From the IMG/VR virus record IMGVR_UViG_3300023174_000162, positions 2,041 through 66,040 of that record: DNA of 64,000 bases; one strand, 5' to 3'. The stretch is from a virus. Taxonomy: Duplodnaviria; Caudoviricetes. The notes under the pieces are model-generated. The model was not told the DNA's origin and did no database searches. It saw only the letters and a program-made list of their open reading frames with translations. Below, one piece after another: positions 31,009-54,388 of the stretch (positions within the stretch are counted from its first letter, which is position 1; every line of letters starts with the position of its first letter). Made by a program: the position numbers and the translations under genes.

Positions 31009-31094
31009 AATTTTCTCCTAGTTATTAATAAAGCTACTACATATAGATCAGTAGTTGAAGATGCTATAGCAAAAGTTCAACATGAGACCATTAA

Positions 31095-31400
31095 TTCGGA
31101 CCGACTGATTGGGTGATAAGGACAGTCGGTGAAAACCTCATCTAGAGCTTAAGCTGCTAGAGCGTAATCGCTATCGTTTGCGTTTACTTGTTTTGCTTGA
31201 TTTACGGTCATCGCCTACCGTGTTGCCTTCTCTACTATCTCACCCTGTCGAAACCTGGTCATCCCCATCAGAAGTACACAATCCCCGCTAGAGCCCTCAG
31301 AGGTTTCTTTCATCTAGGACAACTATGCACTTCTGGTGGAGATGGAGGGAATCGAACCCTCGTCCAGAATGCCTTCGCTTTGAAGGAATTACAACAATTC
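31095..31400 (-). ncRNA. ssrA: Circularly permuted (two-piece) tmRNA; outer boundaries approximate
   Basis: Acceptor piece ends GGTTCGATTCCCTCCATCTCCACCA (31334); 67-nt intervening segment; coding piece starts GGGGATGACCAGGTTTCGAC (31266); tag ANDSDYALAA* at 31181-31149. Confidence 0.92.
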
Positions 31401-31408
31401 TTTTTATC

Positions 31409-31510
31409 TTACTTATAAGTTGAACAGTAAAATAATACAATACAAACACCGACCATTAATGCTCCAATCAAACCTACAAAATATCCAGCAAAAAAACATG
31501 AAGCAGACAT
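31409..31510 (-). CDS. Small hydrophobic peptide (33 aa)
   Basis: MSASCFFAGYFVGLIGALMVGVCIVLFYCSTYK*, coupled to the upstream stop. Confidence 0.45.
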   Translation of the reverse strand: MSASCFFAGYFVGLIGALMVGVCIVLFYCSTYK

Positions 31511-52341: not shown

Positions 52342-52416
52342 TGGTGACTCTAGTAGGAATTGAACCTACATTAAACATTTTAGAGATGCTCGCATTAACC
52401 ATTATGCTATAGAGTC
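52342..52416 (-). tRNA. Amber suppressor tRNA (anticodon CTA)
   Basis: Acceptor GACTCTA/TAGAGTC, anticodon arm AGCAT-CTCTAAA-ATGTT, T arm GTAGG-TTCAATT-CCTAC, ACCA. Confidence 0.88.
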
Positions 52417-52591: not shown

Positions 52592-52667
52592 TGGTGGAGA
52601 TGACAGGACTCGAACCCGCTACCTACTGCTTGCAAAGCAGCCGCTCTCCCAGCTGAGCTACATCCCC
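52592..52667 (-). tRNA. tRNA-Ala(TGC)
   Basis: G3-U70, loop TTTGCAA, CCA. Confidence 0.95.
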
Positions 52668-52760
52668 ATATTGAAACACACTGCGGGAATCGAACCCATC
52701 GGCCGGAATATAGGCCTACAGCCACCCCTCGTACCCTTGGGATTCAATGTGTTTCAATAT
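52668..52760 (-). ncRNA. Stem-closed RNA cassette A with tRNA-like T arm
   Basis: TATTGAAACACA...TGTGTTTCAATA enclosing GGGTTCGATTCCC. Confidence 0.6.
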
Positions 52761-52834
52761 GGCCGGTCCTGAAGGAATCGAACCTCCACTTAGTGGTCCG
52801 TAGCCACTCGTAATATCCATTTTACTAAAGACCG
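52760..52834 (-). tRNA. tRNA-Arg(ACG)
   Basis: Loop CTACGGA, CCA. Confidence 0.88.
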
Positions 52835-53001
52835 ATAATGAATTATAGCCGGTGTAGACACATCAAGGCATCACCCTATCCCGCTACTCCGTTTACTAAG
52901 AAGGCTTTTCGCTACTCAATGATTGATGATCATCTTTCACTACTTTGTTTTTAAAGGCCTCTAGTTGTCCATCCCACTAGACTCTGCTCCTACTATAAAT
53001 G

Positions 53002-53094
53002 TGGTGGGTGTCCACGGAGTCGAACCGCGAATGTTTACCACGAGGGACCTGATTTACAGTCAGGTGATGCACACGCCTTAGCATCAAGACACCC
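53002..53094 (-). tRNA. tRNA-Tyr(GTA)
   Basis: Loop CTGTAAA, long variable arm, CCA. Confidence 0.88.
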
Positions 53095-53157
53095 ATATAG
53101 AAGCACACCAGCCTGGCCAGCTTTCGTATCGAATACATTAACGATGTGCTTTTATAT
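53095..53157 (-). ncRNA. Stem-closed RNA cassette B
   Basis: TATAAAAGCACA...TGTGCTTCTATA. Confidence 0.5.
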
Positions 53158-53233
53158 GGTAGGTGCGGTGAGATTCGAACTCACGACCAATAGATTAAAA
53201 GTCTACTGCTCTAACCATCTGAGCTACGCACCT
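53157..53233 (-). tRNA. tRNA-Lys(TTT)
   Basis: Loop CTTTTAA, CCA. Confidence 0.93.
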
Positions 53234-53348
53234 TCTGATTTTCTGCTTTTCGAAGAGCTTTATTACTCTTTCTATGTGTACCCGCTTTTCTAAATAACGC
53301 CATCTTCACGAACGGATTACGTGGAGAGGCGATGCGTTTTCGTTTCAT
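53211..53348 (-). CDS. 45-aa very basic peptide whose stop lies inside tRNA-Lys
   Basis: RBS AGGAG; MKRKRIASPRNPFVKMALFRKAGTHRKSNKALRKAENQKVRSSDG*; missing from the ORF track. Confidence 0.7.
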   Translation of the reverse strand: MKRKRIASPRNPFVKMALFRKAGTHRKSNKALRKAENQKVRSSDG

Positions 53349-53369
53349 ACTCATCTCCTATAAAAAATC

Positions 53370-53444
53370 TGGCGGTCTCAAGGGGTAACGATCCCCTTCT
53401 TCATGCGTGACAGGCATGTGTGCGTCCATGAACACTTTGAGACC
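53370..53444 (-). tRNA. tRNA-Asp(GTC)
   Basis: Loop CTGTCAC, GCCA; T-loop ATCGTTA. Confidence 0.85.
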
Positions 53445-53450
53445 AGAATT

Positions 53451-53526
53451 TGGCTGCCAAGGTAGGGATCGAACCTACGACCAATTGATTAACAGTCAAC
53501 TGCTACTACCACTGAGCTACTTGGCA
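53451..53526 (-). tRNA. tRNA-Asn(GTT)
   Basis: Loop CTGTTAA, GCCA. Confidence 0.9.
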
Positions 53527-53656
53527 ATATTAGTTTTGCAGTCTGCACTATTTGCTATGTTTCAACGGATTAGCCTGCAGGACTTCGTTTACCGTCTATA
53601 TTCATAGTTACTCAGGCATGATCAAGCCCATGGCTTACAAACTGCAAAATTAATAT
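53527..53656 (-). ncRNA. Putative ~130-nt structured RNA
   Basis: Closing stem ATATTAATTTTGCAGT / ACTGCAAAACTAATAT. Confidence 0.5.
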
Positions 53657-53874
53657 GCTTAGGCTACGTGTTTTCCAATCATCGCCCCTAAGCTGAGTTG
53701 TTACCCTGTCCGAACACTAATCGACGCCTTGTCACGTAGTGTCCACGCTGCTATGTTGTCTGAGAAACCGGAGACGCCACTTGCGTAGTGTCTATATCTC
53801 GCTAACGGTGCCATAGCCACCGGGACAGTTATCGTCGCCACACGCTACTTTCAGGAAAGTAGTAACCGGAAACC
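53657..53874 (-). ncRNA. Putative ~220-nt multi-hairpin RNA
   Basis: GC-rich; stems CTACTTT/AAAGTAG, CTGTCC/GGACAG, CGGTG/CACCG, GCTTAGG/CCTAAGC. Confidence 0.55.
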
Positions 53875-53947
53875 ATATTGAAACACACTACAAAACGCTG
53901 TCACGCTCAGAGTTCGTCCATTAGCGAAGCAATGTGCTTCAATATGG
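53873..53947 (-). ncRNA. Stem-closed RNA cassette C
   Basis: CCATATTGAAGCACA...TGTGTTTCAATATGG. Confidence 0.55.
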
Positions 53948-54048
53948 CAACAATGTTGACTACCCTTCTAGCCCACGGTCAAGTTCTGCTAGTCGCTCTA
54001 GGGTCACCAGTAGGTCCTGTTGCAACAGGTTACCGATCATTGTTTACC
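53945..54048 (-). ncRNA. Putative CCA-terminated non-tRNA RNA
   Basis: AACAATG/CATTGTT-GCCA with internal hairpins. Confidence 0.5.
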
Positions 54049-54203
54049 ATATTAAAACACACTAATGAATCAGTCTGACGCAGCCGTACGCTTGGCAAAT
54101 CGTTTCCAATTTGTTTCTCGCTTTTCTAGGTACTCTGTATGTTCAGAATTCCGCAGTCCTCAATATAATTGCTTATAAGGGCAACTAATGTGTTTTAATA
54201 TGG
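54047..54203 (-). ncRNA. Stem-closed RNA cassette D
   Basis: CCATATTAAAACACA...TGTGTTTTAATATGG. Confidence 0.55.
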
Positions 54204-54275
54204 TACACCGTAGGAGAATCGAACTCCTCTTACTGCCGTGAAAGGGCAATGTCCTAACCGATAGACGAACGGTGC
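54201..54275 (-). tRNA. tRNA-Glu(TTC)
   Basis: Loop CTTTCAC, CCA. Confidence 0.92.
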
Positions 54276-54326: not shown

Positions 54327-54388
54327 ATTATACACTGAACTCTATAATTTGTACACTGTTTTTTTCAGACTGTGTCAAAAAAGATACA
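54327..54388 (-). promoter_or_regulatory. Early promoter cassette driving the tRNA/ncRNA array
   Basis: TATAAT, GTGTAC, variant box TGTGTCAAAAAAGATACA. Confidence 0.75.

Follow-up and report, generated by a model that had tools for sequence, protein, structure and literature searches.

In a 64,000-nucleotide stretch of tailed-phage DNA (positions 2,041 to 66,040 of the IMG/VR virus record IMGVR_UViG_3300023174_000162, hereafter the window), five hairpin cassettes of a common architecture are set into an array of transfer RNA (tRNA) genes. Each cassette is closed by a long helix whose two strands, the arms, keep their pairing from copy to copy, and the interior enclosed by this helix, the cargo, differs from one cassette to the next. 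An initial annotation of this DNA proposed that the hairpin is a modular carrier of variable small RNAs. Comparison with related loci partly supports this idea, namely with regard to the structure of the stem, the conservation of the cargos and the modularity of the cassettes.

A closing helix at tRNA 3′ ends

All 19 tRNAs and the one transfer-messenger RNA (tmRNA) identified by ARAGORN in the window are encoded on the minus strand, so the cassettes must be read in the minus-strand sense. Read in this direction, the four cassettes described in the initial annotation (cassettes 1 to 4; coordinates of all features are collected in Table 1) were recovered at their positions with a shared closing stem, and their interiors show no mutual similarity, as had been claimed. 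The window contains six matches to a 12-nucleotide (nt) arm motif with at most one mismatch, all of them within 52669-54200, and the whole 66-kb record contains eight, compared to none in the reversed control. An inverted-repeat search of the window recovers the arm pairs of cassettes 4, 1, 3 and 5 (repeats I1, I4, I11 and I2, respectively). Each of the four originally described cassettes folds with its closing stem (z from -3.5 to -6.3), and none of 200 shuffled sequences folds as well. The fifth cassette, which was overlooked in the first reading, has the same architecture with another stem sequence. Two details of the original description require revision. The cassettes were said to be slotted exactly between tRNAs; this holds for cassettes 1 (tRNA-Arg/tRNA-Ala) and 2 (tRNA-Lys/tRNA-Tyr), whereas cassettes 3 and 4 adjoin two RNAs, 99 and 218 nt in length, for which neither ARAGORN nor Rfam gives a tRNA call. 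A stem is indeed present, but the helix is longer than the roughly 15 base pairs (bp) first assigned to it, adding the upstream ACCA paired with the downstream UGGU.

The family to which these cassettes belong was delineated on the basis of at least 120 IMG/VR loci listed for the exact arm 15-mer, plus the window (121 sources). Arms that pair with each other define 197 cassettes in 98 of the 121 sources, the window included, and hence in at least 97 other IMG/VR contigs. Altogether, 97 of the sources encode tRNAs (1,279 in total), and for 175 of the 197 cassettes the nearest tRNA is no more than 500 nt away. Some 23 loci contain just one arm match, which may be due to chance. Among the 189 cassettes in tRNA orientation, 143 directly follow a CCA and 145 are followed by UGGU. 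The 3′ end of a tRNA called by ARAGORN is at distance 0 from the cassette start in 74 of the 189, and a tRNA starts 1-2 nt past the cassette in just 21.

Pairing was analyzed in 177 unique cassettes, with the positions outside the search motif taken as informative; the conservation of arm positions 1-12 is partly by construction, because the loci were fetched by the arm motif. The discriminator position forms an A-U pair in 107 cassettes and a G·U pair in 25, the two C positions of CCA form C-G pairs in 150 and 145, and the terminal A (A76) forms an A-U pair in 169. At the inner end of the stem, position 13 is U·G in 141 cassettes and position 14 is U-A in 164, and four pair types occupy position 15 (48, 29, 26 and 17 cassettes). 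The base preceding the discriminator, by comparison, is paired in about 40% of the cassettes, that is, it is mostly unpaired, and therefore the helix begins exactly at the discriminator of the tRNA or other CCA-ended RNA. It extends over about 19-24 bp, with 17-24 paired positions per stem counted from the discriminator. The helix, which could stack on the upstream acceptor stem, is AU-rich on the outside and has a conserved U·G wobble inside; it encloses a structured cargo of 25-125 nt or, in other cases, no more than a very small loop. The 3′ arm is followed by UGGU and more RNA, with no U tract. A Rho-independent terminator has been ruled out as the identity of the hairpin, given the UGGU after the 3′ arm in 145 of the 189 cassettes and given that a scan of the minus strand between 50900 and 54600 for terminator-like sites found none.

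The same architecture emerges from a scan of the loci that does not depend on the arm motif. Stems with at least 19 paired positions were found at the 3′ ends of 84 of 1229 tRNAs, compared to 5 in the reversed control, 3 when the start was shifted and 16 for the complementary strand, and many of these stems have other sequences. Within the cassettes, G·U combinations on the tRNA-sense strand (333 stem cells) strongly outnumber A·C combinations, which can pair only on the other strand (55 cells). The stem of cassette 2 shows compensated changes relative to those of cassettes 1, 3 and 4. The family of cassette 5, collected by a cargo 19-mer without reference to the stem, comprises 21 unique loci. 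Their cargo core hardly varies, the closing stem occurs in at least 8 different sequences, with the canonical one of the window among them, and 15 of the 16 closing pairs have changed on both sides. In the family of cassette 4 (with L094, L084 and L081), 16 of 60 pairs have changed on both sides, some of them within the cargo. The original observation that the stem varies while its pairing is kept is thus borne out by covariation, both across cassettes and inside these two families. Taken together, the G·U bias, the motif-independent scan and the covariation in the cassette 5 family lead us to conclude, from comparative sequence data, that the stem has most probably been selected as an RNA helix, a hairpin of one DNA strand being a formal alternative.

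Conserved and portable cargos

By BLAST, the 166 unique cargos of the 189 cassettes were grouped into 124 families, with the sensitivity of clustering limited by the shortness of the sequences. For four of the five cassettes of the window, homologs were detected: cassette 1 in L039 (99% identity) and L027 (82%), cassette 3 in L086 (96%, the flank downstream being unrelated), cassette 4 in L094 and L084 (92%) and L081 (78%), and cassette 5 in 20 further unique loci. The cargo of cassette 2 has no homolog among the fetched loci. In cassette 5, the cargo segments 53565-53632 and 53545-53564 (minus strand) are identical or nearly so in all 21 loci, and the enclosing stem and the apical hairpin vary around this fixed core. 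Such conservation suggests a sequence-specific partner, such as a protein or a ligand, or perhaps a catalytic role; the core matched no known family. The cargos are thus both conserved and covarying in related phages, the lack of both being what the initial annotation had expected of spacers that are only processing stems.

Some of the cargos resemble tRNAs. The interior of cassette 1 appears, by its sequence, to be tRNA-derived, and its T-arm gives the one clear match of a cargo elsewhere in the window, to the T-arm of the tmRNA. It nevertheless scores below tRNA thresholds (24.5 bits with the tRNA-Sec model versus a cut-off of 47), is not called by ARAGORN and has no CCA after the stem. A T-loop-like motif is present in 21 of the 166 cargos, compared to a mean of 1.6 (maximum 6) in shuffled sequences and none on the reverse strand; in 11 of the 21, cassette 1 included, the motif ends 3-6 nt before the 3′ arm. 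In L039 (4179-4282), a tRNA-His is enclosed by a 24-bp leader/trailer stem that includes CCA and lies directly after an ACCA-ended RNA, so true tRNAs can be cargo, too.

The cassettes appear in unrelated surroundings. In 57 homologous cassette pairs from different contigs, representing 29 families, the median cargo identity is 91%, and cargo identity exceeds that of both flanks in 53 pairs. In 46 of the 57, neither 72-nt flank is more similar than unrelated sequences are (below 61.7%, with a random mean of 49%), and therefore the cassettes behave as portable modules. For example, cassette 1 and its counterpart in L039 are 98.9% identical, compared to 85% and 69% for the tRNAs on either side and only 37% for the gp6 proteins of the two phages. 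Presence/absence differences point in the same direction. One relative contig lacks exactly cassette 1 (joint 52670 to 52760, with 4 letters between), another lacks the 99-nt RNA and cassette 3 as one unit (joint 53871 to 54046), and in a third, 10 letters replace everything from the cargo of cassette 4 through the cargo of cassette 3 (joint 53890 to 54186). These joints fall in the arms, and the arms therefore mark the boundaries of exchange. It is accordingly in part shown, by comparison of contigs, that cassettes are likely gained, lost and exchanged as units at the DNA level, an aspect overlooked in the first reading. The notion of a modular carrier is upheld by these comparisons in that a stem with conserved pairing is combined with independent cargos, and the same cargo recurs in unrelated contexts.

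In four complete relatives (168-400 kb), paired arms are found in one region each, and the remaining arm matches are singletons at about the frequency of the reversed control. There is no Rfam family for the element, the Rfam matches of the window being tRNA and tmRNA only. A blastn search with cassette 3, and with cassette 5 together with the 218-nt RNA, against 50,697 GenBank phage records returned nothing relevant, and the single match of a gapped arm pattern in the genomes of 185,579 bacterial species is a palindrome unrelated to the element, without a tRNA in its vicinity. No published description of the element was found in a search of open-access text.

Proposed release of the cargos and competing explanations

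We propose, at about an even chance of being right, that the cassettes are co-transcribed modules in which the stem would be the site of a double-strand-specific nuclease, probably the host RNase III, that frees both the tRNA and a stem-capped RNA, and in which the arms would also provide homology for recombination. The nuclease, the cut sites, and the stability and action of the cargos are what we infer here, and release is deduced from the anatomy of the helix. Under this proposal, the cassettes would be transcribed together with the phage tRNAs. The helix, stacked on the acceptor and T stems, would form a continuous duplex for RNase III that is centered on the ACCA/UGGU box, and a staggered cut at or near this box would free the tRNA 3′ end, leaving it one or a few nucleotides from the mature CCA, to be finished by exonucleases or a CCA-adding enzyme. 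The same cut would free the 5′ end of the next RNA, with a short leader, and would release the cargo as a blunt-ish small RNA that would resist exonucleases because it is capped by the stem. At the DNA level, the near-identical arms would serve as short portable homology by which cargos are swapped, and units consisting of an RNA and a hairpin are gained or lost, among co-infecting phages.

Several observations are compatible with this scheme. A promoter-like site before tRNA-Glu and the lack of terminator-like sites fit co-transcription of the array, as far as a weak scan can indicate; the site itself is a possible, if weak, candidate for the start of the array transcript, and promoter-like sites in the region are not in excess (10 versus 8.9 in shuffled sequences). 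According to PMC6212723, substrates of Escherichia coli RNase III in vivo are about 22 bp long and usually have G-C or C-G at the two positions that separate the staggered cuts, with W-S-S-W preferred at and beside these; the authors liken this preference to the Mini-III motif ‘ACC U’. The 17-24 paired positions of the phage helix are in line with the approximately two-turn, 20-22-bp length described there (PMC6212723), and the ACCA/UGGU box, paired in most of the 177 cassettes, fits the W-S-S-W pattern and so is a candidate cut site.

Other observations weigh against the proposal. Many of the contigs are related, which inflates the counts, and in about 25 of the 177 cassettes, stem position 5 is an A·C combination that pairs only on the opposite strand. 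Stems with at least 17 paired positions accompany only 111 of the 1229 tRNAs of these arrays, and the hairpin is therefore not a general need for tRNA maturation. The distribution among tRNAs is uneven as well, with 20 of 48 for tRNA-Lys(UUU), 25 of 65 for tRNA-Glu(UUC), 12 of 44 for tRNA-Gln(UUG) and 11 of 48 for tRNA-Leu(UAG), compared to none for tRNA-Met (0/100), tRNA-Asp (0/53) and tRNA-Cys (0/52), which may reflect shared gene order or a link to those particular tRNAs. In the cassette 5 family, 5 of the 21 closing stems, that of the window included, have no C-G/G-C box at the base. Neither RNase III (PF14622) nor a CCA-adding enzyme (PF01743) was found in the record of the window or in the four complete relatives, which means that enzymes of the host would have to be involved. 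Downstream of CCA, the conserved UAUU is similar to an RNase E site. E. coli RNase E is described as cutting 1-3 nt past CCA (PMC2190699), and by this analogy, an RNase E cut just after CCA would be a live alternative to RNase III. Finally, in the one RNA run, X20 (share 0.05), which consists of contigs from relatives, pieces cover 54045-54133 and 52846-52999, and one contig spans a cassette arm into the downstream sequence, which fits an uncut precursor or DNA.

We considered four other explanations for the cassettes. The simplest is that the hairpins are mere processing or insulating structures of the tRNA precursor and that their interiors are neutral filler. Hairpins devoid of cargo do occur at the same positions in relatives (in L039, an 18-bp hairpin with a 3-nt loop follows tRNA-Lys, in the place of cassette 2, and in a metagenomic relative just 10 letters separate the outer arms of cassettes 4 and 3), so the stem works without cargo; the cassettes range widely in length, from 51 to about 150 nt; and the cargos matched no Rfam family and, in an antisense search against the rest of the window, gave only chance-level 13-15-mers. 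Neutral filler is nevertheless unlikely, given that cargo is conserved above its flanks in 53 of the 57 pairs, that the cassette 5 core is near-invariant over 21 loci although its closing stem changes, that two-sided changes leave the cargo helices of the cassette 4 family paired, and that T-loop-like motifs are far more frequent in the cargos (21 of 166) than in shuffled sequences (mean 1.6) or on the reverse strand (none). The portability of the cassettes would also be expected of mobile or recombination elements acting at the DNA level, be they similar to MITEs or PATEs, or attC-like sites folded in single-stranded DNA: terminal inverted repeats are present, presence/absence differences coincide exactly with cassette boundaries, and the same cassette occurs in unrelated contexts, as with the 99% identity of cassette 1 in phages with 37% identical gp6. 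This explanation is distinctly unlikely in view of the strong bias of G·U pairing to the transcribed sense (a one-strand G·T bias in DNA being conceivable), of the exact start of the stem at the tRNA discriminator, with CCA as part of the pairing, and of interiors that form 124 families in 166 cargos instead of repeating a single element. Moreover, the paired copies are confined to the tRNA array in the four complete genomes, the flanks are the complementary CCA and UGG with no target-site duplication seen, and no transposase or integrase has been linked to the cassettes, though neither was searched for.

The tRNA-like features of some cargos raise the possibility that the cassettes derive from tRNA genes by decay or are tRNA genes in disguise, the products of which, with an unusually long acceptor stem, act as decoys for tRNA-binding enzymes or anticodon nucleases. 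The cloverleaf-like interior of cassette 1, with its T-arm and weak tRNA-Sec match, the T-loop-like motif in 21 of 166 cargos, 11 of them with the motif ending 3-6 nt before the 3′ arm, and the tRNA-His within its 24-bp stem in L039 would all be accounted for. We consider this very unlikely as a general explanation, because it covers about 13% of the cargos, the rest being plain hairpins or multi-helix structures without tRNA features, and because ARAGORN detects no tRNA inside any of the 197 cassettes, which also have no free CCA end. Finally, an 8-mer within the 5′ arm seems to resemble the common 5′ handle of CRISPR RNA (crRNA), with the 3′ arm as the complement, which is all that speaks for the arms mimicking the ends of CRISPR repeats and the cassettes being crRNA-like decoys. 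This explanation is barely credible and has been rejected: the repeats are inverted and pair with each other instead of being direct, the cargos of 25-125 nt are structured, in contrast to spacers, which are unstructured and measure about 30-40 nt, the cassette 5 family has arms of unrelated sequence instead, and no bacterial array with the arm motif was found in the 185,579 species genomes.

The cassettes have parallels in known systems. The stems around 16S and 23S rRNA and the sites in early transcripts of phage T7 are processed by RNase III. As in such stable-RNA operons, a long helix is formed from RNA-flanking sequences in a polycistronic transcript, with tRNAs between the stems; the phage helix differs in that it starts at the tRNA discriminator and uses the CCA itself, and in that one type of stem encloses more than 100 unrelated small cargos, with cleavage being a prediction. 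The tRNA cluster of phage T4 includes stable non-tRNA RNAs, species 1 and 2, which share a transcript with the tRNAs and mature through tRNA-processing enzymes. In the window, the 99-nt RNA that ends in CCA resembles RNAs of this kind, whereas the T4 RNAs are not known to have a shared carrier stem. In murine gammaherpesvirus 68, the TMERs are transcribed by RNA polymerase III and contain pre-miRNA hairpins that are released by tRNA 3′-end processing by tRNase Z. In both cases, viral hairpins lie directly 3′ of a tRNA-like unit, but this is an analogy of design only, as the TMERs belong to a eukaryotic virus and their cargo is microRNA.

Two further groups of bacterial and phage stem-loops invite comparison. 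The composite terminator/promoter stem-loops known as PeSLs are associated with modular shuffling in T4-like phages (PMC4122927, PMC2839356). PeSLs, too, are conserved stem-loops that serve as points of exchange between unrelated sequences, comparable with the unrelated flanks in 46 of 57 cassette pairs and the indels that end in arms. A PeSL, however, consists of a stem-loop and an early promoter flanking protein genes, whereas the cassettes are non-coding RNAs in a tRNA array, with arms that pair with each other around a cargo. A promoter-like site within 80 nt downstream was found for 7 of the 177 cassettes (7 in the upstream control, 3 in shuffled sequences), that is, without enrichment. 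Transcripts of E. coli tRNAs such as leuX have a hairpin just past the encoded CCA that is removed by nucleases (PMC2811032, PMC2190699). The position immediately 3′ of CCA is the same, but those hairpins are Rho-independent terminators with a U tract, and the phage stems are followed by UGGU and more RNA.

The phage array and its significance

The window represents 64 kb of a 66-kb record with an estimated completeness of about 40%. It encodes T4-type baseplate proteins, its gp6 is closest, among cultured phages, to those of Caulobacter phage Cr30 and Sinorhizobium phage phiM12 (42% identity), and DNA near-identical to the window has been found in lake-water metagenomes. In the RNA sense, the array opens with tRNA-Glu, cassette 4, the 99-nt RNA, cassette 3, the 218-nt RNA and cassette 5, continues with tRNA-Asn, tRNA-Asp, a small open reading frame (ORF), tRNA-Lys, cassette 2, tRNA-Tyr and a 167-nt spacer, and proceeds through tRNA-Arg, cassette 1 and tRNA-Ala to more tRNAs.

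Table 1. Positions in the window of the cassettes, adjoining RNAs and promoter candidate, in order of transcription
Feature	Positions	Strand	Remarks
Sigma-70-like promoter candidate	54327..54355	-	about 50 nt upstream of tRNA-Glu; 10/12 consensus positions
tRNA-Glu(UUC)	54201..54275	-	ARAGORN/Rfam; pairing of the cassette 4 stem starts with its discriminator and CCA
Cassette 4	54047..54203	-	stem of about 23-24 bp; multi-helix cargo of about 120 nt; arms 54042-54064 and 54186-54208; z -6.33
Non-tRNA RNA, 99 nt	53948..54046	-	ends in GCCA; acceptor-like 7-bp terminal stem; between cassettes 4 and 3
Cassette 3	53873..53947	-	stem of about 19-20 bp with three G·U pairs on the minus strand; cargo of about 40 nt; z -5.79
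Non-coding RNA, 218 nt	53655..53872	-	between cassettes 3 and 5
Cassette 5	53527..53654	-	17-20-bp stem of other sequence; highly conserved cargo of about 95 nt; z -3.13
tRNA-Lys(UUU)	53157..53233	-	upstream neighbor of cassette 2
Cassette 2	53095..53157	-	17-18-bp stem; cargo of about 35 nt; z -3.50
tRNA-Tyr(GUA)	53002..53094	-	ARAGORN; starts 1 nt past the cassette 2 arm
tRNA-Arg(ACG)	52760..52834	-	upstream neighbor of cassette 1
Cassette 1	52668..52760	-	18-bp stem; cloverleaf-like three-arm interior; T-arm abuts the 3′ arm; z -4.35
tRNA-Ala(UGC)	52592..52667	-	first two G pair with CC of the tRNA-Arg CCA, at the base of cassette 1

The RNAs between the cassettes are themselves found in relatives. 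The 99-nt RNA has a homolog in L086 (93%), and its fold is not significant alone (z -1.18). The 218-nt RNA has full-length homologs in L110, L021, L085 and L079 (70-83%) and partial ones in more contigs, and in several phages it is located directly upstream of the cassette 5 RNA; it has no match in Rfam, and its single-sequence fold is not significant (z -0.43). The 167-nt spacer between tRNA-Tyr and tRNA-Arg (52835-53001, minus strand) is conserved in L027 (84% over 147 nt) and may be a further small RNA. It is covered by a contig from the RNA run at a depth of 107, contigs of this kind not being proof of transcription. Within 53928-54066 (minus strand), cassettes 4 and 3 can also pair with one another, through the 3′ arm of the former and the 5′ arm of the latter (22 pairs), so that the 99-nt RNA is enclosed, and a related cross-pair of arms is seen in the inverted-repeat search (I3). 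As the arms of neighboring cassettes can cross-pair in this way, the two kinds of fold are mutually exclusive alternatives.

Three other features of the window relate to translation. The tRNA with a CUA anticodon (52342-52416, minus strand) is labeled Pyl by ARAGORN on the basis of the anticodon alone and scores 68.5 bits with the Rfam tRNA model; going by the anticodon, it would be an amber suppressor. The tmRNA (31058-31447, minus strand), the tag peptide of which ends in YALAA, scores 161 bits with the Rfam model of betaproteobacterial tmRNA, which may hint at a betaproteobacterial host. A 47-codon ORF for a basic peptide (53211-53354, minus strand) has no stop codon before tRNA-Lys(UUU) and ends inside the tRNA, so that cutting by RNase P would yield a non-stop mRNA, and the phage with this ORF also carries the tmRNA. 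The regulation of ArfA follows the same non-stop logic. The conserved part of the ORF ends at the 5′ end of tRNA-Lys, and its homologs in L144, L090, L019 and L068 all run into tRNA-Lys(UUU) (4/4). The peptide has no match in Pfam, PHROG, NCBIfam or PDB, leaving homology to ArfA unsupported, and a profile search with it retrieved 1,369 unnamed proteins of 38-72 amino acids.

The broadest form of the proposal is doubtful and is put forward tentatively: the tRNA arrays of a large uncultured freshwater clade of T4-like phages would be platforms for expression and exchange, in which more than 100 families of small structured RNAs sit in hairpin sockets docked to CCA, are excised by host nucleases and recombine through the arms in an integron-like manner, and act on host translation or defense. 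The cargos would then include tRNA mimics and folds that bind proteins or ligands, such as the cassette 5 core. We rate the element as akin to processing stems, to the stable RNAs of phage tRNA clusters and to shuffling motifs, and not as categorically new. Its practical interest is high because it defines a large, easily recognized set of candidate phage small RNAs.

Clusters of tRNA genes in phages are usually interpreted as sets of tRNAs that serve codon usage or counteract defense, and the spacers have been overlooked. The present analysis points to a widespread, structured and strand-specific RNA element, physically linked to the 3′ ends of tRNAs, in which many small RNAs are conserved independently of one another. 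With the exchange of cassettes, modular shuffling in T4-like phages would no longer be confined to protein genes but would include RNA genes as well. Should the cargos be released, they would make up a large and so far unused reservoir of non-coding phage RNAs that mature through a shared, predictable signal, and the arrays would be a natural analogue of engineered tRNA-flanked arrays for RNA expression.

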